From: a virus
Direction: 5' to 3' (one strand)
Length of the DNA stretch: 46,063 nt
IMG/VR virus record: IMGVR_UViG_3300050009_000007
Coordinates: 1 to 46,063 of that record
Shown here: one piece after another, positions 4,917 through 23,321 of the stretch
How the letters are laid out: the number at the start of each line of letters is the position of its first letter
How positions within the stretch are numbered: position 1 is the stretch's first letter
Translations under genes and position numbers: made by a program
The notes under the pieces: generated by a model
What the model was told of the DNA's origin: nothing
Databases searched by the model: none
What the model saw: only the letters and a program-made list of their open reading frames with translations

Positions 4917-5117
4917 ATGGCGCAGACGCAATTTGAGATTGGGGACATCCTCGCCTCTAGCAAGGCGTGGGATGATTACAAGGCGCAATGGCTGTCGGAT
5001 TTGAAGAAAGCCAAGCAATCCGAACCAACGCCGATTCAAATTGCCAGCCTGCACGAAACATTCATTGAATTTTGGCTGATGGGGAGAACGAGCAATGCCG
5101 ACACTATCAGCAATTGA
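4917..5117 (+). CDS. Small hypothetical protein (66 aa) upstream of the portal gene
   Basis: ATG 4917 lies within ORF 4869..5117. It overlaps the portal start by 23 nt. Confidence 0.45.
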   Translation: MAQTQFEIGDILASSKAWDDYKAQWLSDLKKAKQSEPTPIQIASLHETFIEFWLMGRTSNADTISN

Positions 5118-6528
5118 CAATCTTCCTCAACGGAAGGTCACAACGAAAAACCTTGAGCCAATCGAGGATGCTGTTGCCGTTCATACCACGCGCCGCGCTA
5201 GGATGTCGGGACTTGGCGAGCCTCAATATCTTGCCAACCAGACCGACGTAAATCGAATCCAAGCCGCATTGCGGTCAGCCGAGCGCGGTGACACTTGGAT
5301 GTATTTCACCATCGTTCGGGATATGATTGCATCCTACACGCATTTGCAGGCTGAGTGGATGAAACGCAAGATGGTCATTGTCGGGCAACCCTATAACCTG
5401 ATTCCCTACGACAAGGACAACAAAGATGACATCGTTGCCGCTGGCGTCATCAAGGAAATGATTGACAACTGCCGAAACTGGCGGGATGGCTGTTTGCATT
5501 TGCTGGACGCGACCCTGATGCCCGCAAGTGCGGCAGAGAAGATTTACGAGCCGGTTGACAGCGCGACGAATTCACGGTTCAAATTCCCGCTTCGGATGCG
5601 GCTGAAAGAAATCGCTCCGATTCCCTACATCCTGCTTTGCTTCAAAATCCCGTATCTCGCCTATCAGCCGGGAGCGAAAAATTCAGCATCGGCTTTTGAC
5701 CCCGATATGTGGGAGGGTTGGCTTCGGTTTTACCAGACCAACACCAGCGGCGGCGTGGATTATTCAATTTCAAATGTTTATGCTCCTGACCCCGAAGTTC
5801 ACATAGTCCACAGGGGCAACATTCTTTGCCCATCTATTCCACCAAACTTCGGCGGACAAATCAGGAGCATTCTTTTCTGGTGGCTGCTGGCGACACAAGA
5901 CCGCGATTGGTGGGCGCTAATGATGCAGAAATATGGTTCGCCGTTCATTCTTGGAAAAGCCGACGCGCAGCAGGCCGACACGGTTGCTTTTTTGCAGCAG
6001 GCATTTTCAATGGCAACGCAGATCGGCGGATTGGTCATTGATAAGAAAGCCGACGCGGAACTGATTCAGGCTAATGCCACTGACGGCAGCAATGCCCACA
6101 AGGTTTTCAACGACTACTGCAACTGCGAAGTCAGCAAGATTGTCATTGGACAGGTGCTTTCATCCACGCCAAAAAACACCGGGCTTGGTTCTGGTATGGC
6201 GGCACAGGCTGAATCAGTTCGAGAGGACATCAAGCTGGCAGACCAGACAAATTTCTCCGACACGCTGGAAAAGCAGTTGTTCGAGCAGCACCTTCGCATC
6301 AACGGATATTCCGGTCGCGCTCCAAAGATATTTTGGGGCGGCGTCAAGCCGGGTGATGCAATGGCGCTCACGAAGTCTTACGCCCAGTTGTATCAGGGCG
6401 GATTGCGGCCAACGCAAGCAGCATTGGTTCACGGCGGTGAAAAGCTCGGTTACGAAATCGAGTATGTGCCGGAATCCATTTTGAATCCGAAACCGACTGG
6501 AAAAGTATTGAAGGATGACGGGGAATGA
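5095..6528 (+). CDS. Portal protein (probably Mu gp29/DUF935-like)
   Basis: 477 aa, placed after terL. The segment ...RDWWALMMQKYGSPFILGK... is reminiscent of DUF935 portals. The family call is from memory, not from an HMM. Confidence 0.75.
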   Translation: MPTLSAIDNLPQRKVTTKNLEPIEDAVAVHTTRRARMSGLGEPQYLANQTDVNRIQAALRSAERGDTWMYFTIVRDMIASYTHLQAEWMKRKMVIVGQPYNLIPYDKDNKDDIVAAGVIKEMIDNCRNWRDGCLHLLDATLMPASAAEKIYEPVDSATNSRFKFPLRMRLKEIAPIPYILLCFKIPYLAYQPGAKNSASAFDPDMWEGWLRFYQTNTSGGVDYSISNVYAPDPEVHIVHRGNILCPSIPPNFGGQIRSILFWWLLATQDRDWWALMMQKYGSPFILGKADAQQADTVAFLQQAFSMATQIGGLVIDKKADAELIQANATDGSNAHKVFNDYCNCEVSKIVIGQVLSSTPKNTGLGSGMAAQAESVREDIKLADQTNFSDTLEKQLFEQHLRINGYSGRAPKIFWGGVKPGDAMALTKSYAQLYQGGLRPTQAALVHGGEKLGYEIEYVPESILNPKPTGKVLKDDGE

Positions 6529-6791
6529 GAATCTGCAAGCCACAAGTATTTGGGAAAATTCCTTGGGACAACACGCCCGTTCAGTGGAGCCTAAACGGGC
6601 AGCAAGGATGGTGGCGTTTGCCGAACGCTTGGTTCGCAAGACGGAACGAAGATGGCACAATGACCGGAAGCCCCAACGCAGATTTTTCAAGTCCGTGTTA
6701 TGATTTAATCTTGGACGTTAGCGGCTACCTTGTGTTTCAGGATTTAGGAAGAAGCACACAAGCGGGCTTGATGAGTCCAGCGCAACACTAA
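6525..6791 (+). CDS. Hypothetical protein (88 aa)
   Basis: ATGA overlap with the portal stop. Trp-rich, with no recognised motif. Confidence 0.45.
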   Translation: MRICKPQVFGKIPWDNTPVQWSLNGQQGWWRLPNAWFARRNEDGTMTGSPNADFSSPCYDLILDVSGYLVFQDLGRSTQAGLMSPAQH

Positions 6792-6798
6792 ACGAAAG

Positions 6799-7029
6799 AT
6801 GGGGAACAATCAGACAATTTCCGATGAAGTAAGGGTCAGTGTGGCCGCTCGAATGCGCCGATATTTATTTCCACTTTCTACCCGCACCATCCAACTCATG
6901 TGCATCCGTGGCTGTTTTAAGACGGCGCACAAAAAGGGGATGGGAAAGAATTCGCCTTGGTTTATTTCCGGGGCTGAGATAGTGAGATGGAAACTAAATC
7001 GTCATGCAGTTTTTCAAGACAACATATAA
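6799..7029 (+). CDS. Small HTH DNA-binding protein (excisionase/MerR-like HTH_17 type)
   Basis: 76 aa. The pattern LSTRTIQLMCIRGCFKTAHKKG....WFISGAEIVRW matches the helix-turn-helix plus wing pattern of excisionase-type binders. Confidence 0.5.
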   Translation: MGNNQTISDEVRVSVAARMRRYLFPLSTRTIQLMCIRGCFKTAHKKGMGKNSPWFISGAEIVRWKLNRHAVFQDNI

Positions 7030-7044
7030 CAAAAACAAAACATC

Positions 7045-7551
7045 ATGCCTGAAACAATAACAGAACCAATGGGGACAGGCGCAGCCTCTCCTGAAACCAA
7101 ACGAGGCCCCGGTCGTCCCCCAAAGATGGACGTGCAAGTGCCGCTTCAATCCGCCAATCCTGAAAACATCAACTGGGTCGGGCCGGAAGAATCCGAGCGG
7201 CTGGAAACCATCATTGAGAAACACTTCGTTCGCAAGACCGAACTGAAATCCGGTGACAACAAAAAGTATTACTACGAGGTTCAAGGGGCGCATCCCTACG
7301 TTCCGGCTGGCGTTGCGACAACCAGCAAGCAGAGCCTCGTTCTGCTGGACGTTCAAAAATTCTACCGGAACAAATTCGCAAGCAAGAATTCTGTTGTCGG
7401 CGGGATTCAAAAAGAAGTGAAAGTCAACGTCGCCGCCGAATGGGTTGCGACCGACCCAAAAACGGGGGACTATGAAGTGGTTGACGCCGACGCTTCGTTT
7501 CAAATTGACTCCCGCAAGTTTGAGGAACTTTTCGTGCGGGACAGCGCATAA
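7045..7551 (+). CDS. Hypothetical head-module protein (168 aa) with an AT-hook-like RGPGRPPK
   Basis: Clean ORF between the portal and protease genes, followed by an intrinsic terminator. Confidence 0.6.
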   Translation: MPETITEPMGTGAASPETKRGPGRPPKMDVQVPLQSANPENINWVGPEESERLETIIEKHFVRKTELKSGDNKKYYYEVQGAHPYVPAGVATTSKQSLVLLDVQKFYRNKFASKNSVVGGIQKEVKVNVAAEWVATDPKTGDYEVVDADASFQIDSRKFEELFVRDSA

Positions 7552-7571
7552 TTTCAACCCCGAACCAACGC

Positions 7572-7603
7572 GAGCCGGATTAAAACCCGGCTCTTTTCGT
7601 TTT
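7572..7603 (+). terminator. Rho-independent terminator
   Basis: gagccgg (7572-7578) / 8-nt loop / ccggctc (7587-7593), followed by ttttcgtttt. Confidence 0.65.
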
Positions 7604-7681
7604 CACCGCCAAAACAGATTTACGCAAAGTGCGAAACGTGCCTAAAGACAAAAAACTCTTTGGGGTTTATTTGTTTCGCCA

Positions 7682-8722
7682 ATGGAAGGCACTTGCTTAT
7701 TTTCCGCCATCGCTGGCAATCAAAAGATTGACTCAGATTCCGGCATTATCTCCGGCGTATCAGTCATAACCGCTGGCGAGTGCGCCGGGAAACACGCTGG
7801 CACTTGGATTGACCATAATACGATTTCAAGTCTGCTTTCCATAGCCTCCGGTTTCAAAGATGGCGTCAAAGTTAAACTTTCCCAAAGCGAGGAACATGAT
7901 GGCAGCGTCGGTCAAATCATCGGCACACTGAAAGGTTTCCGAATTGATGGCAACCAGCTTCGCGCCGATCTGCACTTGCTAAAATCCGACGAAAACTACG
8001 GCAAGATTCTGGAAATGTCCTCGAAGATGCCGGAAGCCTTTGGCCTATCGGTTGCCGTGGACAAGAATTACGAAAAACAGGGTGACAAACATTTTCTCCG
8101 TCCGACCGATATTTATTCTGTTGACCTCGTTGAACAACCTGCCGCCAATCGCGGCCTTTTCTCTGCAAAACCTATGAATGACATCAAACTTGCCGCTGAC
8201 GGCAAAACTCACGAAAAAGATTGCGGCTGCAAAGCCTGCATGAGTGCCAAGGAAAAGAGCGAGCTTTCCGCCATGATTGCCGAGCAAGTTGCTTTGGCTA
8301 TTAAGGGCATTGCTGCTCCTGACGTTACCGCCTTGACCGCCAAGTTGACGGAACACGAAACCCAATTGTCCGCTTTTAAGGCCAGCACCGATGCCTCCGC
8401 GCTTTCGTCCAAGAAGGCCGAGATTGCCGGTCTGGTTGCCGACGCTACCCGCGAAGGCAAGGTTGTCCCCCTGACGGACGAACAGCTTTCCAAGATGGAA
8501 ATTCCGGTCATCAAGGAAATGTTCTCCAAGTTGACCAAGGGGCAGGTCAAACTGGCCGGAACACGCAAGATTGAGCCGCCCAAATCCGCCGATGGCAAGG
8601 TCATCACCTTTGAAACCGCCGACGCTCGCGCCGAATTCTGCCGCTCCAAACAGGCGGAAGGCGCGGCCCAACTCACCGCCCAATTTCTGGCGGATACCAC
8701 CCTCGGACTTTCACGCAACTAA
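7682..8722 (+). CDS. Prohead protease (HK97/S78-like) fused to an Ala/Lys/Glu-rich scaffold-like C-terminus
   Basis: EEHDGSVGQIIGTLKGFRIDGNQLRADLHL fits the HD....IG...GL motif around the catalytic His. FGLSVAV fits the G.S.G catalytic Ser motif. The C-terminal ~170 aa are coiled-coil-like. The gene sits immediately upstream of the capsid gene. Confidence 0.7.
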   Translation: MEGTCLFSAIAGNQKIDSDSGIISGVSVITAGECAGKHAGTWIDHNTISSLLSIASGFKDGVKVKLSQSEEHDGSVGQIIGTLKGFRIDGNQLRADLHLLKSDENYGKILEMSSKMPEAFGLSVAVDKNYEKQGDKHFLRPTDIYSVDLVEQPAANRGLFSAKPMNDIKLAADGKTHEKDCGCKACMSAKEKSELSAMIAEQVALAIKGIAAPDVTALTAKLTEHETQLSAFKASTDASALSSKKAEIAGLVADATREGKVVPLTDEQLSKMEIPVIKEMFSKLTKGQVKLAGTRKIEPPKSADGKVITFETADARAEFCRSKQAEGAAQLTAQFLADTTLGLSRN

Positions 8723-8734
8723 CCATCCAAATTT

Positions 8735-9730
8735 ATGCCCAACACGACATTATTCGACATTGCAACCCTCTACCGCGCCGATGCTTTCACCGGGCTGATT
8801 GAGGACGTAACCACGCTCGCACCGGAATTCAGCACTTTCTCTGCCGTGACCCGCGAGGGAACATGGTATGAAGTCTCAAGCCGGACAACTCTGCCAACCG
8901 CCCAGTTCCGCTATGTGAATCAGGGCGTGGCAACCAGCAAGTCCATCTACAAGAAAGCGGTCAAGGAAATGTTCAACCTGGATGTCGAGTTGCAACAGGA
9001 CGAAGCCGTTTGGAAAGCTGACCCGGCAAATGTCGGCCCGCTGTGGATGCTCGAAGCCGAAGGCGCGATGCGCGCCGCTTCCATCTTGCTCGGACAACAG
9101 ACTTGGTATGGCGTTTCCGCCGATTCCAAGGGGTTCACCGGCATTCGCAAACAGCTTGCCTACTCGGTTCTGCCGAGCACGGGCGCAAGCACGACTTCGG
9201 CCTATCTGGTCTGGATGGACCCGAAACACGGCGCACGGTTTGACGTTGGCCAAGGCGGTCAATTCGCAATTTCCGCTCCCCACCTCCAACAGGTCTTGGA
9301 CGGCTCCAGCAATCCTTACATGGCCTATGTCGGCAATTTGCAGGCATGGGTTGGTCTGAATCTCGGTTCGGCCTACTCTGCTTGGTCTGTGGGCGGAATC
9401 AACACGACTTTGGCGAACTGGCTCACGGACGACGTGGTTGCCCAATTGATTGCCAAAATCCCGGTGGCCCGCCGCAACAACCTTCGCTTGTTCATCAACC
9501 GAACTGCGGAAGCCACACTGCAACGCAGCCGCTCCACCGTCCTTCAAGGCATGGCTGGCGGCAACGTCGCTGGCGTTTCTTCGGGCGGCGTTGGCGGGGT
9601 TTCGTTCCATCCGTCTGATGCGGGTGGCCGTCCAGCTTTCGCCCCGCGTCCTCTGGAAACCAATGGGTATCCGATTACCTTAACGGATTCGATTCTCGAT
9701 ACCGAAACCAACACGACTGGCAGCACCTAG
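8735..9730 (+). CDS. Major capsid protein
   Basis: 331 aa, placed directly after the protease/scaffold gene. The size and position are typical of a capsid gene; no motif-level proof. Confidence 0.7.
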   Translation: MPNTTLFDIATLYRADAFTGLIEDVTTLAPEFSTFSAVTREGTWYEVSSRTTLPTAQFRYVNQGVATSKSIYKKAVKEMFNLDVELQQDEAVWKADPANVGPLWMLEAEGAMRAASILLGQQTWYGVSADSKGFTGIRKQLAYSVLPSTGASTTSAYLVWMDPKHGARFDVGQGGQFAISAPHLQQVLDGSSNPYMAYVGNLQAWVGLNLGSAYSAWSVGGINTTLANWLTDDVVAQLIAKIPVARRNNLRLFINRTAEATLQRSRSTVLQGMAGGNVAGVSSGGVGGVSFHPSDAGGRPAFAPRPLETNGYPITLTDSILDTETNTTGST

Positions 9731-9768
9731 GATTCGGCAAACTTGATTAACCAAAACATCAAAACATT

Positions 9769-10239
9769 ATGAGCGTATCTTTTTCAAACCTACTCACGCC
9801 GAACAACTACCCGACCAACCAACGGGCAGTCATTGACAACAACTTCGTGCAGGTCGTTTCGCTGAATGCGAATGCCGCCGCTGTTACCAACACCAATTCG
9901 ATTGATTTGCAACAGGCGACTCCGTATCCGGTTACGGAAATCGTCAATGTTCAAATTGGGATTGGTGCTGCTGCCGCCAGCAATGGCCCGGCGAACAGCG
10001 CCAACATCAATGCCGTCCTGCAAGTGTCCAGCGATAACGTGACGTTTGCCAACAGCACCATTTTCGCAACCCCACTGCTTTCGACTGGCGCGGCTGCGAA
10101 TGGTTTGCTCGCGGCCAGCACCGTCACCATCAAGCTGGCCCCCGGCGAAGTCCGTTACATTCGCGCCCAGTTCAAAGGTGAGGCGACGGCGGCGACGTAC
10201 AACGGCACGATCAACGGCACAATTCAACTCGGCTTTTAG
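9769..10239 (+). CDS. Hypothetical Ala/Asn/Thr-rich protein (156 aa), possible head decoration protein
   Basis: Position after the capsid gene. The composition predicts a beta-rich protein. Confidence 0.55.
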   Translation: MSVSFSNLLTPNNYPTNQRAVIDNNFVQVVSLNANAAAVTNTNSIDLQQATPYPVTEIVNVQIGIGAAAASNGPANSANINAVLQVSSDNVTFANSTIFATPLLSTGAAANGLLAASTVTIKLAPGEVRYIRAQFKGEATAATYNGTINGTIQLGF

Positions 10240-10264
10240 GGGATTGAAACATGGGGAAATGCTT

Positions 10265-10672
10265 ATGAAAAAAGTCACTCTTTTTCTTGTCGCTCTCGCC
10301 TTGTGTTTGACAGCCAAGGCGGGAGAACTAACCTTTCCGAAAGCGCCATCGCTGGTTGTTGTTTTTACAAACATCACGTTTGCGTCGAACATCACGGCGT
10401 CAGTTACGTTCACCAACGCGCAAAACACCATCGTTTCCTCGACGCACACGTTTCAGTTATATTACACACCAGTTGGAACCAACTCAGCCACGTTCTATCT
10501 GGACGATACCATTGATGGGTCGAACTGGAATCCGGTTTCAACGAACACCACAACCGGGGCTGCCACTCTGGATTACGAACTGGATATTCAGGGGAAATGG
10601 AGCCAATACCGATGGCGCGGAGTGGTTGCCGCGACCAACGCAACCGCAACTGGACTTTACATGGCTCAGTGA
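10265..10672 (+). CDS. Small Thr/Asn-rich protein with a Sec-type signal peptide
   Basis: ATG 10265 lies within ORF 10046..10672. N-terminus MKKVTLFLVALALCLTAKA|GELT. Confidence 0.55.
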   Translation: MKKVTLFLVALALCLTAKAGELTFPKAPSLVVVFTNITFASNITASVTFTNAQNTIVSSTHTFQLYYTPVGTNSATFYLDDTIDGSNWNPVSTNTTTGAATLDYELDIQGKWSQYRWRGVVAATNATATGLYMAQ

Positions 10673-10681
10673 TTCGATTTT

Positions 10682-12175
10682 ATGGGGAATACAATCAAAA
10701 ACCACTATGAACACACCAACGCCTCTTTCAACGAGGTTTTCGCTGGTGAGTATAAAATGCCTCTCGTTGCCGCCCCTGAAACGGTTCTCGACATAGGCGC
10801 AAACGAGGGGGCTTTCACGGCTTGGGCATTGGAGGAATGGCCGAATTCTCAGATAAACGCATTCGAGCCAATTCCTGAAAATGCCGAGTATTTCAGGAAG
10901 AACATCAATGGTAGTCCCAATGTTCGATTCTTCGAGCGGGCAATCGCCCCGCTGAGTCCGGTCAGGATGTTCTATGGCAAGGGAAATAGCGGCCAATGCT
11001 CACTGTATCGAAACGGGGAACAGACTGAAAAATCTATTGAGGTCAATGCCGTCCCGTCCAAAGAACTTCCAAGCTGCGAATTCGTCAAGGTAGATGCCGA
11101 AGGGTCGGAACTGGACATCATCACCAATCTCGATCTATCCAAGACCAAGGCTGTTGCTTTTGAATATCACAGTTGGCCGGATGCGGAGCGTATTATTCAA
11201 CATCTGGAATCGAGCGGATTCGAGTCGGTTGAACACCGTGCGAGTTCAAGTCATCGCGGGGTGTTGAAGTTCGCCCGTCCTGACGCTGTGATTAAAAAGT
11301 CCAAGGGGACAAAGAGCGCCGTCAAGGTGTTCATCGGAGTGCCGAGCTTTTTCCATATTGACCCATATTTTCACCGCTGCTTGTTGATGACCTATGGATG
11401 GCTTTCGAGTCAGCCGGACGTTCCAGAGGCCATACATGGCGCTGTGGCGCACTCTTTCGGTGACAGCCCGCATGTCGGGCGGTCGCGCAACATGATTACC
11501 CGCAACTTTCTTGAAAGTGATTGCACCGACCTGCTGTTCATTGACAGCGACCTTGTTTTCAGCATTGACCATGTAAAGCGGATACTGTCGCATGACGAGG
11601 AAGTTGTCGGCGGGATGTATTTCAAGAAAAGCCAGGGAGCGCCAGAGCCGTGCCTGAACACAATCCGAAATCCGATTGTGAAGTCAAATGGCCTGAATCA
11701 GGTTGCCTACATCGGCACGGGGTTCATGAGAATCAAGCGGATTGTATTTGAGAAAATCATCGAACGATGGGGTGACGAGATTGCCTATTGCCCCGATGGA
11801 ACAACCGACATTCTGGAATACAACTTCTGGAATCTGGCAACCAATACGTTCGCGGAAGAAATCATCGCTGTTTATCCCGAACGGGTTGAGGCGCTGGTCA
11901 AAAAGTATGGCGTGACACCAGAGCGTGCCGCAAAAGCCATTCGCACCCGCTGGCTGTCGGAAGATTGGTGGTTCTGCCAGCGATGCAACGATTTGGGATT
12001 CAATGTTTGGGCAGACAGGCGCATTGCCCTGAAACATTCCGGCAACGTGCTTTACCCGCTCGAAACACAAGAGCAGGAGATTTTCGGAAAACCAATTATT
12101 TACGGGAGTAACCCTCCCGCCAGCGCCGATGCCATGCCGTCAGCTTCCCCACTGGCAGTTCCGGCGTCGGCGTGA
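10682..12175 (+). CDS. Fusion protein: FkbM-family SAM methyltransferase (N-terminal) plus GT-A-type glycosyltransferase (C-terminal)
   Basis: N-terminal half: VLDIGANEGAFTAWA...INAFEPIPENAEYFRKN...FVKVDAEGSELDI (FkbM/Methyltransf_21 pattern). C-terminal half: LLFIDSDLVF (DxD-like), VVGGMYFKK, GTGFMRIKRIVFEKI (GT-A-like). Confidence 0.8.
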   Translation: MGNTIKNHYEHTNASFNEVFAGEYKMPLVAAPETVLDIGANEGAFTAWALEEWPNSQINAFEPIPENAEYFRKNINGSPNVRFFERAIAPLSPVRMFYGKGNSGQCSLYRNGEQTEKSIEVNAVPSKELPSCEFVKVDAEGSELDIITNLDLSKTKAVAFEYHSWPDAERIIQHLESSGFESVEHRASSSHRGVLKFARPDAVIKKSKGTKSAVKVFIGVPSFFHIDPYFHRCLLMTYGWLSSQPDVPEAIHGAVAHSFGDSPHVGRSRNMITRNFLESDCTDLLFIDSDLVFSIDHVKRILSHDEEVVGGMYFKKSQGAPEPCLNTIRNPIVKSNGLNQVAYIGTGFMRIKRIVFEKIIERWGDEIAYCPDGTTDILEYNFWNLATNTFAEEIIAVYPERVEALVKKYGVTPERAAKAIRTRWLSEDWWFCQRCNDLGFNVWADRRIALKHSGNVLYPLETQEQEIFGKPIIYGSNPPASADAMPSASPLAVPASA

Positions 12176-12186
12176 ATTTAACACAT

Positions 12187-12633
12187 ATGTCGCAATATAC
12201 AACTCAGGCCGCAGTTGAAGGCGAAATCCCGCCAATGGATTTGATTGCCCTGACAGATGACGACGGGCGCGGGGCGCTCAACACAACAATCCTGACCCAG
12301 TGTATTGCCAATTCCAGCGGGGAGATTGACCAAGCCTGTGCCAACATCTATGGCCAGCAAATCCCGTTCAATCCGATACCTCCATCGGTGGCGAACATGG
12401 CGCTCACCATCACCTGCTACCGCCTAATTCGCCGCCGCAACACCGCCGATGAGCAAAACAAGTTCTTTGCTGAATACAGCCGGGTTCGGGACTTTTTGGA
12501 TGCGGTCAACACGGGCGACAAGCATCTCAGCGACGTTACGTTGCGCGACTTCCCTCAAGGGGCGGTTGTTGGCCGTCCGGTGATTTATTCGGGCGGCATT
12601 TTCGGAACGGGTGTGATTTCAAATACGATGTAA
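12187..12633 (+). CDS. Head-tail connector protein, Mu gp36/DUF1320-like
   Basis: MSQYTTQAAVEGEIPPMDLIALTDDD... fits the DUF1320 N-terminal pattern. An alternative GTG start at 12172 overlaps the upstream stop. Confidence 0.55.
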   Translation: MSQYTTQAAVEGEIPPMDLIALTDDDGRGALNTTILTQCIANSSGEIDQACANIYGQQIPFNPIPPSVANMALTITCYRLIRRRNTADEQNKFFAEYSRVRDFLDAVNTGDKHLSDVTLRDFPQGAVVGRPVIYSGGIFGTGVISNTM

Positions 12634-12635
12634 CC

Positions 12636-13094
12636 ATGACCTTTGAACTGGACATATCTTCGATGGATTTGGCTGAACAAGTTCAAGCCAGATTCGAGGA
12701 AGTTCGTGTGCCGATTCAGGCGGCGATGGCAAACAGGTTCGCCAGCATCGTGAATCACAATTTTGGTCAAGAGGGAGAGGATAGGCCTTGGACGTGGCAA
12801 CCTTTGACACGGAACTATGCCGACACACATCATGGCGGAAATCGAATCCCAACCGAAACCCTAACCGGAGATTTGCAAGCATCCATCCAGATTGATGAAA
12901 TGAATCCCGACCATGCTTCGGTGTGGACGGATTGCCCCTATGCGGCAGAACAGCAATGGGGGACTCAATTCGTTCCAGCCCGTCCCTTTTTCCCTCTGAT
13001 TGGAACCGGAATGGATGACGCCGAATTGACTCCCTATGCCCTTGACCAAGTAATGCGAGCGGCAGAGAATGAAGCGGAAAGGCTACTGCGATGA
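12636..13094 (+). CDS. Virion morphogenesis / head-tail joining protein (Mu gpG-like)
   Basis: AAMANRFASIVNHNFGQEGEDRPWTWQPL resembles the conserved ...F..eg.....W.pL segment of gpG-like proteins. Confidence 0.55.
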   Translation: MTFELDISSMDLAEQVQARFEEVRVPIQAAMANRFASIVNHNFGQEGEDRPWTWQPLTRNYADTHHGGNRIPTETLTGDLQASIQIDEMNPDHASVWTDCPYAAEQQWGTQFVPARPFFPLIGTGMDDAELTPYALDQVMRAAENEAERLLR

Positions 13095-13630
13095 GCATGG
13101 CCATTCCCCAACTTCCAGCCGGATTGACCGCCCCGCTGTCAATCAGTCAGCAGGCGCAGCAACTTTCCGATGTGCTGTTGCCCTACGCAGCTAAGTCGGG
13201 TGGTGACGCCCAAATCGTTTCCAATCTGCAAATGCTCTGGATGCAGGCGAGCATGGCCAATGACCGCCCCCGAATCCTGATTTGTTACAATGGCGAAAAG
13301 TCTCGCGGCGAGTTCTCGGTTGCCGCCGCAAATCACCGGGTTGACCGGCAATGGATTGTGGCTGTCACTCGCGGGCGCGGCTGGAACGTCAAGCGCGGCG
13401 ACTCTCTTTACAAGACAGTTGGTAACGCCGACCCGTTTTATGATGTCATCGAGGAAGTGCGCGACTTGATTCGTTGCATGGTTGGAATCAGTGAAGAATT
13501 TCCAGTGGATTACAAGGGGATGTCGCCCATGTCCAGCGGCAATAATGCGCTGGATTCCTATGCCATCGAATTTTCCACGGCGAACGACGAGCCAGCCATT
13601 CTTTTAACCAATCCAAACGCACCAGCATAA
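13091..13630 (+). CDS. Hypothetical neck or tail-terminator candidate (179 aa)
   Basis: ATGA overlap with the upstream gene. The call rests on position between the connector and tube genes only. Confidence 0.5.
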   Translation: MSMAIPQLPAGLTAPLSISQQAQQLSDVLLPYAAKSGGDAQIVSNLQMLWMQASMANDRPRILICYNGEKSRGEFSVAAANHRVDRQWIVAVTRGRGWNVKRGDSLYKTVGNADPFYDVIEEVRDLIRCMVGISEEFPVDYKGMSPMSSGNNALDSYAIEFSTANDEPAILLTNPNAPA

Positions 13631-13632
13631 TT

Positions 13633-13806
13633 ATGACAGCCAAATCTAAAACCAGCACGGCGACTTTCGGGTTTGAAAATCATCCCGGAAACCTCGTAAA
13701 ACTGTGGCCGACCAACCAGCCATTGCACCATGAATTTCTTTCGCAATCGGACTTTGACGCCCGCTTTGAAATCGTTCCCGAAACACCAACCACAACCACG
13801 AAATAA
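13633..13806 (+). CDS. Small hypothetical protein (57 aa)
   Basis: Hand translation MTAKSKTSTATFGFENHPGNLVKLWPTNQPLHHEFLSQSDFDARFEIVPETPTTTTK. It exactly fills the gap between neighbouring genes. Confidence 0.3.
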   Translation: MTAKSKTSTATFGFENHPGNLVKLWPTNQPLHHEFLSQSDFDARFEIVPETPTTTTK

Positions 13807-13809
13807 TTT

Positions 13810-14274
13810 ATGCAATCACAAACACCCGGATCTCCGCCGATTGGTTTCGCTTCAACCGGCATAACCACCGTCGTTTGGGGCACTCAGGGCTTGGCCGCAT
13901 TTCAAGGCCAGCCCGGTGCTGACATTAACAACGGCAACAATGGCTATTACATCATGACCGATTACAAGCAGCGGCTTAAAAAGGATTTGGACTATGGCGA
14001 AAATGGTTCCGGCGTGGAATGCCGCCGAACCACCATCGTTCACGGCCAAACGTGGGACATCACTGTTGAGGACAATTCCAACATGGCCCCTCCCGCTCAA
14101 AACACGATTATTCACTGCTATGACATTCTGCAAAAGGGGCAGGGCGGCCCGATTGCGGCACAGCAATTGTGGTATGCGACGGTTGTTGAAAGTGAATACA
14201 CCGCTGCTCCCAAGCGTCCCGGCATGAGAACGATCACCGCTGAAAACCTGACTCTGGTGGATACGCAATCGTGA
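13810..14274 (+). CDS. Tail tube protein candidate (154 aa)
   Basis: It is the gene immediately before the chaperone/frameshift pair and the tape measure. No sheath-sized gene is present. Confidence 0.45.
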   Translation: MQSQTPGSPPIGFASTGITTVVWGTQGLAAFQGQPGADINNGNNGYYIMTDYKQRLKKDLDYGENGSGVECRRTTIVHGQTWDITVEDNSNMAPPAQNTIIHCYDILQKGQGGPIAAQQLWYATVVESEYTAAPKRPGMRTITAENLTLVDTQS

Positions 14275-14275
14275 T

Positions 14276-14809
14276 ATGGCCGAAGCGATTCCATTGGATT
14301 CACCGCAAGCGGCAAAGACCATTGCTGATGCTGCTGAGAAGCGGGAAGCGGCGGCGCGGGCGGCGGCGACACCGTTGCCGGGGCCGCTGGCTGATGCCTT
14401 TTCGCCCCATCCCGACATCAAGGTTGGCAATTACACCGTGCGGGCTTTTTGCGAAGCTGACTATGAGTATTTGCAGACATTGGAACATCCGATTGTTGAT
14501 ATGCTGATTGCGGCTTTTTCCGGCAAGGAATCACAATCTGATTACTTCGCTTCCGGTCAAAAGGCTTGGGAACTATGCTACCTGCTCACTCGCCCGATTG
14601 ATGACTTGGACGCACAGTTCAAGAATGGTGTGCAATCAGTGAAGGATGCGGCCAAAGCCGAGTTTTCCAAGATGCCATTTGGAGCACCGTCAATCATTCA
14701 TGCCGCAGCCCTGAAACAGGTCATGGACGCTGGCAAGACGGCTATCGCCTACGGGTCATCGGAAGATTCCGAAGGCTCAAAAAAAAATGCAGCAGCAGTC
14801 CAGTCTTAG
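14276..14809 (+). CDS. Tail assembly chaperone (G-like, 0-frame product)
   Basis: 177 aa, acidic, directly upstream of the tape measure gene. It ends 20 nt after an A9 slippery run. Confidence 0.6.
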   Translation: MAEAIPLDSPQAAKTIADAAEKREAAARAAATPLPGPLADAFSPHPDIKVGNYTVRAFCEADYEYLQTLEHPIVDMLIAAFSGKESQSDYFASGQKAWELCYLLTRPIDDLDAQFKNGVQSVKDAAKAEFSKMPFGAPSIIHAAALKQVMDAGKTAIAYGSSEDSEGSKKNAAAVQS

Positions 14810-15027
14810 GAACATTTGGATTCCTATTTGACCGACGCTGCACGCTGGTAAAGTTCTTTGGCTGGTCAGTGGATTATGTCAGACGTTTGCCAACAATTCA
14901 GGCGACTGCCTATTTTTCGTGGGCCGTTGAAAATCAAGACAGCATGTTTGGAACAGGAATAAGCCGGACAAGTCCGGGATATTGCGACCAAGAATTGACT
15001 AAGATTTTATGCAGGAAGGCGAAGTAA
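14276..15027 (+). CDS. Tail assembly chaperone, -1 frameshifted extended product (GT-like)
   Basis: After a slip on tcA AAA AAA (14779-14787), the -1 frame stays open for 80 codons (KCSSSPVLGTFGFLFDRR...WSVDYVRRLPTIQATAYFSWAVENQ...) to TAA at 15025-15027. This fills the otherwise ORF-free 199-nt gap and overlaps the tape measure start. Confidence 0.5.
14779..14787 (+). promoter_or_regulatory. Candidate -1 programmed ribosomal frameshift slippery site (A9)
   Basis: A AAA AAA heptamer in the 0 frame, in the canonical position between the chaperone and tape measure genes. Confidence 0.5.
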
Positions 15028-16289
15028 GAGCACAATTCCGATTGCTTGGCGACGAAGTTAAGGGTGACGTTGCTGCCATCCAAAGCAAGATTGCTGGCCA
15101 ATTACAGGCTTCTGGCAAGGGCACTCCACTTTCTCAAGTCAACCGAGATTTAGAGGCAAACATTGCCTTTGGGCATGGCGGGAAAGGCGGGATGGGCAAG
15201 GTCAGTTCCAAGATGCTCGCTGCCATGAGTCCAGAGGACAGGGCATGGGTTTTGAGTCGAGGTTCCAGCGGTGGCGGCAGCAGCGCGGGATTCAAGGGCA
15301 AACCCCCGCCGATTCTTGCCGACCTGAAATCCAAGATGGACATGGACAGGTCGAAGTTCATCAAGGACGCGACATTCGCCATGATGCCCCTATTCAACCC
15401 GACATCGGTTTGGGGAAACCTGTTTGCATCGCGCCAGATATTCAGCGCAATTTCACAGACAAAGACTGGACGCGGCATGATTGGAAAAGCTGGATTGTCC
15501 GGCACGGGTGGAGCGGCTTTGGCTGCTGGCGGTATCATTGGAACACTGTTGGCCGTTGGTTTAGCCATCAAAGGGCTGGCCAAGGTGATGCACGAAAGTA
15601 TCCGCGCCTATCAGGACGCACCTAAACTTTACGCTAAGGCGATGACGAGCGGGCTTGGACTGAAATTTGTCACGAAGCGTTCAATGCTTGCCGAAATCAT
15701 GGGAGTCAGCGAACAGGAAGTCATCAAATATGGGTATGCCTTTCAATACCTGAATCCGAAGATTGAATGGGCGTCGGCTATTATGGCGAGAACCAACACG
15801 AATCTGACGAGTGTGGGATGGTCGTTTAAGATTGTGGGCAACGACTTGAAGGCGATGTTCGCCGATATAGCTGACAAGGCCGCTCCTGCCGTTCGAGAAT
15901 TCACCGCCGGATTGTCTGTGATGATTAAGACAATGACAGGATTTATAGACAGAAATCCCAAAACATCCGCTATGGTCGGTAAATTATTGGTCGGACTTCT
16001 TTTAGGACCGGCAACCACATTGATTGGGAAGGACGTATTTGACCTTATTAAACACGCAGGAAAGGGATTAGACCCCGGCCCCGCTCCACAGCCGCTTTCC
16101 TTTATGAAGCAACTCCCCGCCTCGTCTTGGGAAAAGATGGGGTTGGTCATTGGCGCGGGCATGGGTGGAAGTCCAGCCTCACAAACGGCGCACAACACCA
16201 AGAGCATCGCACAGGACATGAAGAAACTGGTTTCCTACGTCGCTCGCGGCGGCGGGGCTGGAACATTCAATTTACAAAACGCACCATGA
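15009..16289 (+). CDS. Tape measure protein (short, 426 aa)
   Basis: Position after the chaperone pair. It has Gly/Ala-rich hydrophobic segments (GGAALAAGGIIGTLLAVGLAIKGL, MVGKLLVGLLLGPATTLIG). Confidence 0.55.
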   Translation: MQEGEVRAQFRLLGDEVKGDVAAIQSKIAGQLQASGKGTPLSQVNRDLEANIAFGHGGKGGMGKVSSKMLAAMSPEDRAWVLSRGSSGGGSSAGFKGKPPPILADLKSKMDMDRSKFIKDATFAMMPLFNPTSVWGNLFASRQIFSAISQTKTGRGMIGKAGLSGTGGAALAAGGIIGTLLAVGLAIKGLAKVMHESIRAYQDAPKLYAKAMTSGLGLKFVTKRSMLAEIMGVSEQEVIKYGYAFQYLNPKIEWASAIMARTNTNLTSVGWSFKIVGNDLKAMFADIADKAAPAVREFTAGLSVMIKTMTGFIDRNPKTSAMVGKLLVGLLLGPATTLIGKDVFDLIKHAGKGLDPGPAPQPLSFMKQLPASSWEKMGLVIGAGMGGSPASQTAHNTKSIAQDMKKLVSYVARGGGAGTFNLQNAP

Positions 16290-16798
16290 AAACGATTACA
16301 TTCAAAAACGAGAGCGGAAAGGTTTGGGTTGACACTGGCGAAGAAACGCCAAGCCAGCCGACGCAGCAAGTCACCGTTGGCCATACTTCCCCGCTCAATG
16401 TCAAGTGGGCGCGGAACATCCAAATCAGCAACGAGTTCATTTTTGTCAAACGCTATGGCTGTCCGGTGGTGGGAATCCATGTTGACGATCTGGTTGCACT
16501 GGCTGTTGCTGCCGAGCCGGGTTTGTCGTGGCCTCCGGTGTTCATAAAGTTTCCACAGTCTGCGACGGTCAAGACTGGTGAATCAGCAACCTTTGTGGTC
16601 GAGGTCGCAACCGGAGAACTGCCGACAACGTATCAGTGGCAAACTTCAACCGATAGTTCCACGTGGAACAATTTAGACGGCCAAACATCGCCAACGCTTG
16701 TAGCAACTGTGGCAGGACAATATCGCTGTGTCGCAACCAATGGTGCTGGCAGCACAAGCACGGCGGGAGCAATTTTAACCGTTCAAGGCAATGTATAA
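16286..16798 (+). CDS. Tail protein with a C-terminal immunoglobulin (I-set-like) domain
   Basis: ATG 16286 (ATGA overlap with the tape measure stop). PQSATVKTGESATFVVEVATGELPTTYQWQ...LVATVAGQYRCVATNGAGSTSTAGAILTVQ matches the I-set pattern (..Y.W..., G.Y.C.A.N..G). Confidence 0.6.
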   Translation: MKTITFKNESGKVWVDTGEETPSQPTQQVTVGHTSPLNVKWARNIQISNEFIFVKRYGCPVVGIHVDDLVALAVAAEPGLSWPPVFIKFPQSATVKTGESATFVVEVATGELPTTYQWQTSTDSSTWNNLDGQTSPTLVATVAGQYRCVATNGAGSTSTAGAILTVQGNV

Positions 16799-18098
16799 CC
16801 CTGTTATCAGCGACTCACTTCCTCACTTCCTAGACCGCGCTGATGGCAAGGACTACGGGGCGGGGCCGGTTGGTGCTCCGACGCCAGCAGGCGCAATCAC
16901 CATCCAAGGCCCGCAAGGTGCGACCGATTACGAGATTCAGGAAGATGTTGACTCGCCAACTTTGGAACGTGCGGAACAGGCGACAATCACCAAGAGTTTC
17001 CATGACCTGACTTGGGCAGATGCTTGCACCCGGATTTTATCTCTTGGTCGTGGCGGGATTTTGATTGACCGCTACAACAATCAGATTCGGATTCTTTCCA
17101 GCACCATCCAAAGCCAGCGCGGGGACAAGGCGACTTTGAAAATCGTTGCCGAAGGGTTGTCATTTGACACGCCACCAGATGAATTTACCTGCACTCCGGT
17201 TGAGCTTGGCATCAACATCATCAAGCATCCGAGATATTTTTACGCCCTGAATCCAAGTCCGGTTGACGATGACCCGATTACGCAGCAAGTAAAACAGTGC
17301 ATTATTCGCGCAATCCAGACGTATCAGGATTCCCCGTTCTTTCCAACGGCTGTAACTTTGACGGGGTTGTTAAACGGCCAAGTCCACGACAACATTATGG
17401 CCGGACTGAAAAGCGGACGGATGGTTTTGGGAATTGTTAATGTTAATTACAAGCCGCAATACGACTTCAAGCAGGATTTAATAATTCAGGATTCGTCAGT
17501 GTATAACAACGGAAATCCTGGGCCAAGTTTCTATCCGGCAATGGCAACCAAGAATGGAGACGTAAACGACCCATACGTTCATGTGGCATTCAATATATCC
17601 AAGGCGAACAAGCCCACTATTGAACTTGCACTTTCCGCAGCACAGGAAGTCATTCAAAAACTCTGGAAGATTGAGGACAGTCCTTACATGGTTGGGTTTG
17701 AAATAAACTGGTCGGTGTATTACTATCGCCCCCCTTATATAAATCCGGGTGGGTATGTCGAAAATCCAATCACGGAGGCCAACCCGTCATTGCCTGATTA
17801 TTTTTACTCACCTCTTGCGCCTCAAGACTCGAACTTTTCAAAAAGAACATTGTTTGATTATCTTTATGCCTACAATCCACAATGCTATCTGGATAAATAC
17901 GGGTATGCTTCGATTTCCTGCCTGAGAAAATCCGACTCCATCGAATATCAAAGAACATGGTTTAAGGTGACTCGCTCTTGGCTTTGTTCGGCAGTGGGAA
18001 TGTGGGATTTGGATATAAATTCAAACCTGCCAAGACCTATTTATGCCGGTAAGCCAAAAAATCCCGGCGACCCGGAATACTACGACATAACATACTAA
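16791..18098 (+). CDS. Hypothetical tail-tip/baseplate protein (435 aa)
   Basis: Long clean ORF overlapping the upstream stop. The function is inferred from position only. Confidence 0.55.
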   Translation: MYNPVISDSLPHFLDRADGKDYGAGPVGAPTPAGAITIQGPQGATDYEIQEDVDSPTLERAEQATITKSFHDLTWADACTRILSLGRGGILIDRYNNQIRILSSTIQSQRGDKATLKIVAEGLSFDTPPDEFTCTPVELGINIIKHPRYFYALNPSPVDDDPITQQVKQCIIRAIQTYQDSPFFPTAVTLTGLLNGQVHDNIMAGLKSGRMVLGIVNVNYKPQYDFKQDLIIQDSSVYNNGNPGPSFYPAMATKNGDVNDPYVHVAFNISKANKPTIELALSAAQEVIQKLWKIEDSPYMVGFEINWSVYYYRPPYINPGGYVENPITEANPSLPDYFYSPLAPQDSNFSKRTLFDYLYAYNPQCYLDKYGYASISCLRKSDSIEYQRTWFKVTRSWLCSAVGMWDLDINSNLPRPIYAGKPKNPGDPEYYDITY

Positions 18099-23320: not shown

Positions 23321-23321
23321 T

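Follow-up and report, generated by a model that had tools for sequence, protein, structure and literature searches.

The 46,063-nucleotide stretch of viral DNA analysed here (the window) encodes a single protein, among its virion head genes, that joins an FkbM-family methyltransferase to a GT-A fold glycosyltransferase (MT-GT). Our best reading is that this enzyme glycosylates a protein of the capsid surface in the cytoplasm late in infection and then O-methylates the attached sugar. We regard that reading as evenly poised between right and wrong, and we consider modification of a host glycan or of phage DNA less likely. Dozens of related phages keep the enzyme's gene in a fixed position by the cement gene, which suggests that environmental phages, of which this one probably infects a member of the Verrucomicrobiota, build heads that carry a methylated sugar.

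Two enzyme domains in one polypeptide

A first-pass annotation of the sequence had described one open reading frame with FkbM-type and GT-A-like halves. The gene is as described, reading from an ATG on the + strand (Table 1), and every motif quoted is present: VLDIGANEG at residue 35, AFEP, VKVDAEGSE, FIDSD at 286-290 and GTGFMRIKR at 345-353. The full-length AlphaFold2 model has a pLDDT of 91.7 and a pTM of 0.81, and the protein is predicted to be soluble, without a transmembrane segment (maximum 19-residue hydropathy, 1.0). Full-length relatives with the same architecture are 62-73% identical to MT-GT, and 76-80% identical over the GT half.

The methyltransferase half scores above the curated cut-offs of both Pfam PF05050 (34.8 bits against 22.7, E 2.3e-8) and TIGR01444 (61.5 bits against 37.7, E 1.1e-16), which bears out the FkbM assignment, and it matches the PHROGs methyltransferase family phrog_8156. 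Its neighbours in a whole-protein fold search are class I methyltransferases, with E values down to 3e-8, and the glycine-rich SAM motif I is kept in the consensus of 73 fusion proteins. Its family and its recurrent fusion to GT domains suggest that this half O-methylates a hydroxyl group, such as that of a sugar.

Because the methyltransferase half dominated the whole-protein fold search, the GT domain was modelled separately (pLDDT 87.9). The model shows the single Rossmann-like alpha/beta/alpha fold that binds nucleotide-sugars, and its top 37 Foldseek matches in the PDB are all GT-A glycosyltransferases; three lower-ranked matches among the top 50 are nucleotidyltransferases, which have the same nucleotide-binding fold. 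Glycosyltransferases of viruses and of proteins are prominent among the neighbours (STIV A197, LH3, COLGALT1, mimivirus R699, Mnn9, GalNAc-Ts and PBCV-1 A64R), and matches in viral libraries are annotated as GT-A, GT2 or nucleotide-diphospho-sugar transferases. Structurally, A197 (PDB 2c0n) comes closest (E 2.7e-7, 22% identity). It is also the best profile match in PDB sequences, over the DxD region at an E of 0.099, which is below significance; in that search FIDSD falls opposite FLDED in A197.

Among library families the GT half matches just one, phrog_1574, of unknown function (E 3.9e-20). Searched on its own, the C-terminal half matches nothing in NCBIfam, in PDB sequences or, even at E<=10, in Pfam, and it reaches the gathering score of neither PF00535 (GT2) nor PF03452 (Anp1/GT62). 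Similarity to Anp1 is seen in relatives only, the window's own GT half having no PF03452 match: 48 of 57 GT-domain members match PF03452 at E<=0.1 (best E 2.6e-6), all below threshold, with the per-protein scores shown running from 15.8 to 23.5 bits against a gathering score of 28.8. These searches thus place the GT half in none of the curated families. What backs the GT-A-like assignment is structure, namely the two models and their GT-A Foldseek neighbours, not the sequence libraries.

The motifs expected of a GT-A active site are in place on alignment. D288 and D290 belong to the DxD motif, which in this fold binds metal and nucleotide-sugar at the end of the fourth strand; neither varies in any of three alignments (86, 57 and 73 sequences), and R267/R269 are likewise invariant among the 86. 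E427 and D428, an acidic xED-type motif and candidate catalytic base, are kept in at least 90% of the 86 sequences, and across the three alignments they are either that well conserved or invariant. H452 reaches the same 90% level among the 86 and is invariant in the 57-sequence GT-domain alignment.

Table 1. Features of the MT-GT region, in nucleotide positions of the window
Feature	Position	Strand	Basis or remark
Major capsid protein, alternative acceptor	8735..9730	+	PF20911 E 7e-11; phrog_212
s1, BPP-1 Bbp16-type capsid cement/decoration protein	9769..10239	+	Profile match to 3j4u and 8cjz
s1 N76, N79, N81	9994-10011	+	Asn specific to GT-carrying phages
s1 N95	10051-10053	+	Asn specific to GT-carrying phages
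s2, small beta-rich protein with signal-peptide-like N-terminus	10265..10672	+	Between cement and MT-GT genes
MT-GT, bifunctional methyltransferase-glycosyltransferase gene	10682..12175	+	Single ATG-started ORF, 497 aa
FkbM-family SAM-dependent methyltransferase domain, residues 34-181	10781..11224	+	PF05050, TIGR01444, phrog_8156
SAM motif I VLDIGANEG, residue 35 onward	10784-10810	+	Within FkbM domain
GT-A fold glycosyltransferase domain, residues about 214-468	11321..12085	+	phrog_1574, model, Foldseek
DxD, D288-S-D290 (in FIDSD)	11543-11551	+	Conserved motif
E427-D428 (in SEDWWFCQ)	11960-11965	+	Conserved ED
H452	12035-12037	+	Conserved His
Pro/Ala/Ser-rich C-terminal tail, residues 471-497	12092..12172	+	Low model confidence
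Mu gp36-type head-tail adaptor	12172..12633	+	PF07030 E 1e-17; phrog_195

A phage family in which the two activities recur together

The GT family comprises 1,218 clusters at E<=1e-30 and is almost confined to phages. Cellular genomes contribute five family loci in 185,579 species, and the two closest of these are phage-like contigs with the same synteny. FkbM is the partner in 59 of the 73 two-domain family members; it may be N- or C-terminal to the GT, or encoded by an adjoining separate gene, and other two-domain members carry different SAM methyltransferases or a second GT2 domain. Judged across these members, the GT-FkbM fusion is the standard two-domain form of the family and not a rarity. 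Since the fusions are independent, occur in both orders and are accompanied by adjacent-gene pairs, the two halves probably act in one pathway or on one glycan. The earlier idea that they form a single module is thus strongly supported as far as action on the same glycan goes.

Distant members of the family, at about 28% identity, occupy nin-like or replication regions in other phages, so the family overall is not tied to capsids. The homologues in Cr30 and in two lambdoid phages, for example, sit among replication and recombination genes. Could MT-GT then act on DNA? It might glycosylate phage DNA, for instance on 5-hydroxymethylcytosine made from 5-methylcytosine, and methylate the sugar, protecting the genome from restriction at packaging; expression at packaging time would fit such post-replicative modification. 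The window does encode a C5-cytosine methyltransferase (36803..37573, with FCCAGGAG, PPCQ and ENV motifs), and phage GT-A enzymes with R...DxD...ED motifs glycosylate DNA (10.1101/2023.12.21.572611), a pattern that the MT-GT family shows as R267/R269...DSD...ED. However, this motif set is generic to GT-A enzymes. Known DNA-glycosylation genes cluster, whereas in this window some 25 kb separate the GT from the C5-methyltransferase gene, which is on the opposite strand. A Pfam and PHROGs scan of 30 proteins for DNA-hypermodification partners, which could miss very divergent enzymes, found none: neither a TET/JBP-type dioxygenase nor a thymidylate-synthase homologue occurs among these proteins or the neighbours of the C5-methyltransferase. 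A lone C5-methyltransferase is a common anti-restriction gene, and we know of no described FkbM partner for DNA sugars, both of which weaken the case. We therefore consider DNA modification very unlikely.

MT-GT sits in the head operon beside the cement gene

MT-GT was said to lie between the capsid and head-tail connector genes and to be tightly packed with them, and it does: the major capsid gene is upstream, the Mu gp36-type adaptor gene follows, and the spacing is a 9-nt gap on the 5' side and a 4-nt stop/start overlap on the 3' side. Because the adaptor start overlaps the MT-GT stop, translation of these two late-operon genes is probably coupled. Terminator-like sites were at background level in a promoter and terminator scan of the region, which was uninformative.

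The gene order of the clade is capsid, s1, (s2), GT with or without MT, and Mu gp36-type adaptor, and the order from capsid through GT to adaptor persists down to about 35% GT identity. In 54 assessable viral loci, s1 is directly upstream of the GT in 27 and a capsid or scaffold gene is upstream of it in 37; other lineages likewise carry the GT just 3' of a capsid-like gene. The capsid gene and s1 are kept without the GT in three loci (L009, L012 and L104) and in Akkermansia phage Chantilly, and GT-less phages nest within the GT-carrying clade. On this comparative evidence the GT is an accessory gene, dispensed with by relatives that keep both the capsid gene and s1. The GT-less sample is small because few capsid-anchored loci were collected (at least five by alignment scan, seven by a back-translated TGLIEDVTT pattern); the s1 alignment was too divergent to seed a collection.

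This setting bears on the host-glycan half of the first-pass proposal. MT-GT might add and methyl-cap a sugar on a glycan of the host envelope (LPS, capsule or S-layer), masking receptors, and the phage would benefit from less superinfection or from progeny that are not trapped on cell debris. FkbM relatives do include methyltransferases of the terminal sugars of polysaccharides, and MT-GT has a weak RfbT (PF05575) match, as do 10 of 73 relatives. Lambdoid phages have some of the distant GT homologues in accessory nin-like regions, and a few occur in bacterial chromosomes, but almost no family member is found in cellular glycan clusters. The s2 protein, encoded next door, looks exported, but MT-GT itself has neither a membrane segment nor a signal peptide. 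Nor does MT-GT resemble a GtrB-type seroconversion enzyme, having no hydrophobic segment and no GT2 Pfam match and lying in the late head operon. That location, mid-operon and probably coupled to the adaptor gene, is not a lysogenic-conversion position, and even deeply diverged relatives keep the gene next to that of the cement protein. We judge the host-glycan explanation, together with its proposed benefits, unlikely.

The cement protein is the leading candidate acceptor

Two small genes immediately upstream of MT-GT had been proposed as acceptors. The first, s1, is indeed a capsid cement protein: a profile built from 26 homologues matches the 'cementing protein' of PDB 3j4u (E 2.4e-11) and the 'Capsid Decoration Protein' of PDB 8cjz (E 1.1e-5). 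In BPP-1 the cement protein is dimeric and lies on the outer face of the capsid (PMC3863775). At the alignment columns that best separate the cement proteins of GT-carrying and GT-less phages, Asn is found in 82-94% of the former and in none of the five GT-less proteins. In all, four Asn that GT-carrying phages conserve are missing from the cement proteins of GT-less relatives. These patterns make s1 the leading candidate acceptor; any choice of acceptor here is one of guilt by association. The GT-less locus L104 combines a capsid gene like that of L002 with an s1 like that of L012; adjacent genes recombine together, so the correlation between s1 type and GT may reflect cassette inheritance rather than function.

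The second gene, s2, fares differently. In all ten unique s2 homologues the N-terminus stays basic plus hydrophobic, and in most of them a small-x-small cleavage-type site comes next; with this signal-peptide-like start s2 is probably exported, and one would not readily take it for a virion protein. It is present also in the GT-less L012 and L104, and both points tell against it as an acceptor. Its relation to s1 is not one of paralogy (hhalign probability 4%), and no PDB match to it was found. The Asn/Thr-rich composition that had been taken as a mark of acceptors also lost its force, since counts of N-X-S/T sequons were at the composition-based expectation in every structural protein and were rejected as evidence. 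What remains of the proposed virion-protein decoration, once composition and s2 are set aside, is a GT gene that comes after the cement gene in most related phages, a cement type that co-varies with the GT, and the precedent of mycobacteriophage Corndog.

A different phage protein might nonetheless be the acceptor, either the Asn/Thr/Ser-rich tail fibres (19331..26720) or s2 glycosylated before Sec export. The fibres contain 20-24% Ser+Thr and 10-11% Asn, and s2, directly upstream of MT-GT, is likewise rich in Asn, Thr and Ser. Cytoplasmic glycosylation ahead of export occurs in autotransporter adhesins. However, only about 10 unique loci have s2, which persists where the GT is missing, the GT is linked to the head module and not to the fibre module in every lineage examined, and a shallow look found no fibre feature that covaries with the GT. 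An acceptor of this kind seems improbable to us.

The major capsid protein is the other capsid-surface candidate. Its C-terminal tail was considered as a GT-linked acceptor and rejected, the PITLTDSILDTETN motif being equally conserved without the GT, including in Akkermansia phage Chantilly.

How might the capsid surface be modified?

In our preferred reading, capsid glycosylation followed by sugar methylation, a soluble two-domain enzyme would be produced late, alongside the head proteins. In the GT-A domain, D288/D290, probably with H452, would hold a metal through which a host nucleotide-sugar is bound, and the domain would move the sugar onto a capsid-surface protein. The likeliest acceptor would be the cement protein, whose gene lies two upstream; the site may be N95 or the Asn/Ser cluster N76-S77-x-N79-x-N81. 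The alternative would be the major capsid protein. The fused FkbM domain would then O-methylate the attached sugar with SAM and so cap it, leaving the phage head coated with methylated sugar. The donor, the acceptor and the order of the reactions are our suggestions, as is the benefit, which may lie in shielding the surface or in changing adhesion. A cytoplasmic GT-A enzyme that links sugar to Asn would be unusual.

Parallels and differences with known enzymes

Corndog carries an O-methyltransferase (gp35) and glycosyltransferases (gp36-38) in its head-gene block, between the portal and capsid protease genes, and like MT-GT these pair a GT with an O-methyltransferase among virion structural genes. 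Mycobacteriophage genes of this type (Corndog gp35-38, Che8 gp110) modify virion surface proteins (PMC11600133, PMC12363180), and the acceptor sites lie in the C-termini of capsid and tail-tube proteins. In the phage studied here, by contrast, the capsid C-terminus does not track GT presence, and its enzyme is fused and probably serves a Verrucomicrobiota phage, whereas the Corndog enzymes are separate and come from phages of Actinobacteria. Homology was not found: hhalign probabilities between the GTs were 0.3% for gp38, 0.1% for gp36 and 44% for gp37 (over 39 columns around the DxD), the FkbM half and gp35 appear unrelated by BLASTP (E 0.17), and tblastn with MT-GT returned no mycobacteriophage.

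PBCV-1 A064R of the chloroviruses offers a second parallel. It comprises a GT-A rhamnosyltransferase, a second GT and a SAM methyltransferase, which adds a 2-O-methyl group to the glycan's terminal rhamnose; working in the cytoplasm, it assembles the glycan carried by the virus's own capsid protein and caps it with methyl (PMC9614988). Like MT-GT, it is one viral polypeptide that joins GT and sugar O-methyltransferase activities. Its D1 structure (2p73) is a weak fold neighbour of the GT domain (Foldseek rank 44, E 2.7e-4). However, A064R belongs to a eukaryotic giant virus, has three domains in the order GT-GT-MT, and extends an existing N-glycan, so that it need not attach the first sugar. 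Its methyltransferase is described simply as a class I SAM-dependent enzyme (PMC9614988). We consider the resemblance of MT-GT to Corndog gp35-38 and to A064R to be analogous rather than homologous.

Other relatives are by fold. A197, an archaeal-virus GT-A enzyme of about 200 residues, has no methyltransferase, unlike MT-GT, and to our knowledge its acceptor is unproven. Anp1/Mnn9 (PF03452, the GT62 mannosyltransferases) is the only curated family that the GT domain touches, and Mnn9 (3zf8) is a fold neighbour, but these enzymes are eukaryotic Golgi membrane proteins acting on mannan. The phage DNA glycosyltransferases associated with 5mYOX or ThyS share with MT-GT the GT-A fold, the generic R...DxD...ED pattern and a phage origin. 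They cluster with a C5-methyltransferase and dioxygenase or ThyS homologues, whereas the C5-methyltransferase gene of this window is distant and neither partner was found.

Implications for phage heads

Why would a phage glycosylate its head? In the literature found, phage-encoded virion glycosylation has been shown experimentally in a few mycobacteriophages only, where it blunts antibody recognition. If the family described here, which has no name in any current annotation library, serves the same purpose, glycosylated heads would be widespread in uncultured phages, across more than 1,000 sequence clusters, and would extend well beyond actinobacteriophages. Thousands of phage genes now called 'hypothetical' would gain a function. 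Capsid decoration would also gain a compact two-activity enzyme and a defined enzyme-acceptor pair, MT-GT and a BPP-1-type cement protein; surface exposure of the cement protein has already been proposed as the basis of peptide display on BPP-1.

If the conserved Asn residues were attachment sites, they would reveal a new way of glycosylating proteins on Asn in bacteria. The broadest form of this idea is that the phrog_1574 GT-A family, usually with FkbM, is dedicated to capsid glycosylation in environmental phages that infect Gram-negative hosts and places a methylated sugar on conserved Asn residues of the jellyroll cement protein. Attachment would then be cytoplasmic, sequon-independent and Asn-linked, through a GT-A enzyme. 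We offer this form as a long shot.

Beyond its two domains, MT-GT ends in a tail in which residues 474-487 have a pLDDT below 50 in the full-length model. The C-terminal tails of its homologues are similar to this one but variable in sequence.

Results

The window has the appearance of an almost complete tailed-phage genome (~46 kb), with replication and recombination genes on its minus strand. The ORF joining a methyltransferase to a glycosyltransferase (MT-GT), first seen by reading the sequence alone, proved real. It is separated from its upstream neighbour by 9 nt, its stop codon overlaps the GTG start of the adaptor gene, and promoter- and terminator-like sites in 6500..17000 show no excess over shuffled sequence. 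Together these features place MT-GT within the late head/neck operon, as the first-pass annotation had proposed.

Features of the window and positions of s2 homologues in related loci
Feature	Coordinates	Strand	Remarks
Large terminase	2624..4150	+
Mu-type portal	5095..6528	+
Scaffold-like gene	7682..8722	+
Major capsid protein	8735..9730	+	PF20911
s1, cement-protein gene	9769..10239	+	small gene
s2	10265..10672	+	small gene
MT-GT	10682..12175	+	497 aa
Mu gp36-type head-tail adaptor	12172..12633	+
Neck1/tail-completion protein	12636..13094	+
Short tape-measure-like protein		+
Very large ORF, presumably fibre or spike protein	19331..23320	+	1329 aa; Asn/Thr/Ser-rich
Very large ORF, presumably fibre or spike protein	23121..26720	+	1199 aa; Asn/Thr/Ser-rich
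PAPS-reductase-like protein	31227..32111	-	PF01507, phrog_424
C5-cytosine DNA methyltransferase, compact	36803..37573	-	255 aa; FCCAGGAG, PPCQ, ENV motifs; phrog_363
HNH endonuclease domain	42303..42851	-	plus weak, below-cut-off Mor-type transcription-activator segment
Pentapeptide-repeat protein fused to DUF5758	44914..45630	-	PF00805, E 2.5e-45
s2 homologues	L001 9563-9994; L002 7596-7994; L003 7600-8004; L005 8891-9298		also in L010, L012, L019, L029, L104

By curated thresholds, residues 34-181 belong to the FkbM family of SAM methyltransferases, in agreement with the initial call (PF05050, 34.8 bits against a cut-off of 22.7; TIGR01444, 61.5 against 37.7). SAM motif I reads VLDIGANEG, and the fold neighbours of this half are class I methyltransferases. 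The C-terminal half, searched alone in Pfam, NCBIfam and PDB sequences, had no match; its sole library match was phrog_1574 (E 3.9e-20), of unknown function. AlphaFold2 models built from homologue alignments were confident (whole protein, pLDDT 91.7 and pTM 0.81; C-terminal half, pLDDT 87.9), and the top Foldseek PDB neighbours of the C-terminal model were GT-A glycosyltransferases only, which upholds the GT-A-like reading. STIV A197 came first (E 2.7e-7, 22% identity), followed by human LH3 and COLGALT1, which are collagen hydroxylysine glycosyltransferases, and by B4GALNT1, mimivirus R699, GlfT2 and yeast Mnn9; GalNAc-transferases and PBCV-1 A64R were also among the neighbours. TM-scores were modest (0.34-0.48 relative to the query), and therefore the half is a GT-A domain, yet close to no solved family. 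A 57-homologue profile reached A197 among PDB sequences at E 0.099, in an alignment spanning the DxD. Pfam Anp1 (GT62) was touched below threshold by 48 of the 57 members (best E 2.6e-6), and the half scored under the Pfam membership thresholds of both GT2 and GT62.

The candidate catalytic residues of the glycosyltransferase (GT) half are retained on alignment. Across alignments of 86, 57 and 73 sequences, D288 and D290 (FIDSD) and R267/R269 are invariant, and E427/D428 (SEDWWFCQ) and H452 are invariant or at least 90% conserved. An active metal-dependent GT-A enzyme should show this pattern. No hydrophobic segment was found in the protein, whose C-terminal tail is Pro/Ala/Ser-rich and modelled with low confidence. 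Phage GT-A enzymes with R...DxD...ED motifs also modify 5hmC DNA (10.1101/2023.12.21.572611), and the window has a C5-cytosine methyltransferase, albeit one with no Pfam match at E<=0.001. It is nevertheless very unlikely that MT-GT glycosylates phage DNA: known DNA GT-A genes cluster with C5-methyltransferase and dioxygenase genes or ThyS homologues (10.1101/2023.12.21.572611), whereas here the C5-methyltransferase lies ~25 kb away on the opposite strand, and neither a dioxygenase nor a ThyS homologue turned up in the 30 proteins scanned or among the C5-methyltransferase's neighbours.

A profile search of the GT domain over 1.84 billion representative proteins returned 1,218 representatives at E<=1e-30 and 11,074 at E<=1e-10; the domain defines a large, unannotated family. 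Cellular genomes are nearly free of it (5 loci in 185,579 species, one genome each), and the two closest cellular-genome loci are phage-like contigs binned with Verrucomicrobiota, with a gene order identical to the window's. Only one isolated phage, Akkermansia phage Chantilly, has a similar capsid protein (27% identity). From these two observations, the host is probably a verrucomicrobium. Rare cellular homologues in Burkholderiales/Betaproteobacteria MAGs (L096 1562-2377 and L097 4953-5765; 25-26% identity) have a non-phage context: a TPR-repeat-like protein of ~515 aa lies beside them, with riboflavin/thiamine housekeeping-like genes, judged by eye, around.

In many family members the GT stands alone, in proteins of 250-290 aa. 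Among the 150 best representatives, 73 are at least 400 aa long; because 59 of these carry FkbM, the fusion is the family's usual two-domain form. Others of the 73 carry Methyltransf_23, _24 or _25, and four have a GT2 domain. FkbM may be N-terminal to the GT (as in the window), C-terminal (family proteins P0048 and P0070) or encoded separately, immediately up- or downstream; the fusion arose or was rearranged repeatedly. Recurrent fusion is classical evidence that both activities serve one pathway, formation of a glycosidic bond and then methylation of the sugar. Further variants of the pairing are a class I methyltransferase-like ORF flanked by two GT paralogues and adjoining terminase and portal genes (L037 1630-3800), and a methyltransferase-like ORF directly upstream of the GT (L042 4474-5672). 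One sequence in the alignment of two-domain members matches Pfam LAGLIDADG_3 and Intein_splicing, which suggests an intein within the GT/MT protein.

Four homologues (76% to ~40% identity) led to five genomic places, all with the same order: Mu portal ... scaffold, capsid, s1 (~157 aa), s2 (~135 aa), GT with or without methyltransferase, gp36 adaptor. In 80 fetched viral contigs with GT homologues, we located the neighbour genes by iterated HMM searches, and we counted contexts in the 54 non-redundant loci that had 2 kb or more of sequence upstream. s1 was directly upstream of the GT on the same strand in 27 of the 54; a detectable capsid gene lay upstream in 28, and a capsid or scaffold gene in 37. 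In more distant loci, inspected manually, the GT again stands right behind a capsid-like gene, as in L050 (portal, scaffold, 294-aa capsid-like gene, GT) and L057 (411-aa capsid-like gene, two small ORFs, GT), which L039 resembles. At ~28% identity the context differs: homologues lie beside RusA in a nin-like region (two lambdoid records), among replication genes (T4-like Cr30), or in the tail region beside a GT1 gene and near a 2OG-Fe(II) oxygenase (Pelagibacter phage HTVC023P). The capsid linkage therefore belongs to this clade and some others, not to the whole family. In marine podovirus-like contigs (L067 3521-10449, L075 2411-9776) and in HTVC023P (L107; gp71, gp77, gp78), structural-looking genes surround the distant GT homologue. 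With it lie several ORFs that by eye appear 2OG-Fe(II) oxygenase-like (gp71 of HTVC023P is annotated as one) and, in HTVC023P, the GT1 gene. Such a combination is reminiscent of collagen LH3, a top fold neighbour, with its hydroxylase-plus-glycosyltransferase logic.

A profile of 26 s1 homologues matches PDB 3j4u, 'cementing protein', over nearly its whole length (E 2.4e-11), and 8cjz, 'Capsid Decoration Protein' (E 1.1e-5). 3J4U is the head of Bordetella phage BPP-1, in which the jellyroll cement protein Bbp16 dimerises at the twofold axes on the outer capsid surface (PMC3863775). By this likeness s1, whose gene the GT gene follows, is the outermost capsid component. The GT itself is dispensable: L009/L105, L012 and L104 lack it (order capsid, s1, (s2), adaptor), and Chantilly has capsid and s1 without it. 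GT-less contigs nest within the GT-carrying clade at two positions in a neighbour-joining capsid tree rooted on Chantilly and carrying no support values.

We aligned cement proteins of GT-carrying loci (33) and of GT-less phages (five, among them Bbp16). The columns that best separated the groups were Asn in the GT-carrying set (94, 85, 82, 94 and 70% conserved), and four of them are Asn in the window's s1 (N76, N79, N81, N95). At these four columns, one of 20 GT-less residues is Asn (L009, N76 column), the remainder being A, T, S, K, E, D or G. Where s1 has N79, the GT-less proteins carry Thr or Lys, and where it has N81, Thr, Ala or Ser, in the motifs T-x-T, T-x-A, T-x-S or K-x-T. These columns are the sole in-silico hint to the acceptor. 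In L104 the capsid groups with that of GT-carrying L002, but s1 matches the L012 type; by this mixed ancestry the s1-to-GT stretch moves as a cassette. Adjacent genes are co-inherited with or without interaction, which weakens the correlation between s1 Asn residues and the GT.

Two other acceptor signals were rejected: N-glycosylation sequons are not enriched, and the capsid C-terminal motif is identical with or without the GT. The first-pass annotation, which had proposed decoration of the virion or of a host glycan, stands as to domains and operon position but not in taking Asn/Thr-rich composition as a mark of acceptors. Another phage protein as acceptor, fibres or s2, is without comparative support and seems improbable.

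s2 is small and beta-rich, with no detectable relation to s1 or PDB structures. A basic-plus-hydrophobic N-terminus occurs in 10 of 10 unique homologues, mostly followed by a small-x-small site, and makes a signal-peptide-like leader (MKKVTLFLVALALCLTAKA|GEL). s2 accompanies only some GT loci and is also present in GT-less L012 and L104. An apparently exported-type protein inside the head module, between the cement and MT-GT genes, is unexpected, and we treat it as an unexplained neighbour. Modification of a host glycan by MT-GT would fit such a neighbour and the FkbM/RfbT flavour of the enzyme; we consider it unlikely, given that the enzyme is soluble and fixed in the head operon and that its family is almost absent from cellular glycan loci.

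Discussion

Glycosylation of the capsid surface followed by O-methylation is the best-supported model, and we give it an even chance of being right. It builds on the observed folds, motifs, operon position and comparative patterns. A soluble late enzyme would take a nucleotide sugar from the host; the scanned proteins of the window included none for sugar-nucleotide biosynthesis. The GT domain would move the sugar onto a capsid-surface protein, the cement protein being the leading candidate, and the FkbM domain would thereafter O-methylate it; relatives with a second GT2 domain instead of the methyltransferase would be expected to build a disaccharide. Donor, acceptor, order of reactions and benefit are what we infer.

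The two closest functional precedents are mycobacteriophage virion glycosylation and chlorovirus PBCV-1 A064R. Corndog encodes an O-methyltransferase (gp35) and three GTs (gp36-38) between portal and capsid protease, but MT-GT has no homology to its proteins beyond the DxD region. A064R is one polypeptide in which two GT domains are joined to a methyltransferase; the latter adds a 2-O-methyl group to the capsid glycan's terminal rhamnose (PMC9614988). In fold, MT-GT is no more than a distant neighbour of A064R-D1. MT-GT therefore seems analogous to both systems and a member of neither, and we predict that it is a non-homologous version of virus-encoded glycosylation and methyl capping of the virus's own capsid. 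The enzyme stands for a large phage family that lacks annotation, and it comes with a specific acceptor hypothesis that can be tested; until a glycan is seen, this stays a prediction.

The two large ORFs contain 10-11% Asn and 20-24% Ser+Thr and have no PHROG match; as listed they overlap by ~200 nt, and the second probably starts further downstream. In L001 (21305-21497), the closest full-length relative, the gene behind the large fibre gene carries PF07801 (DUF1647), which may point to another carbohydrate-related function close to the fibres; the window yielded no equivalent. The pentapeptide-repeat/DUF5758 gene stands where the early region ends, and its product is a possible DNA mimic or anti-defence candidate.
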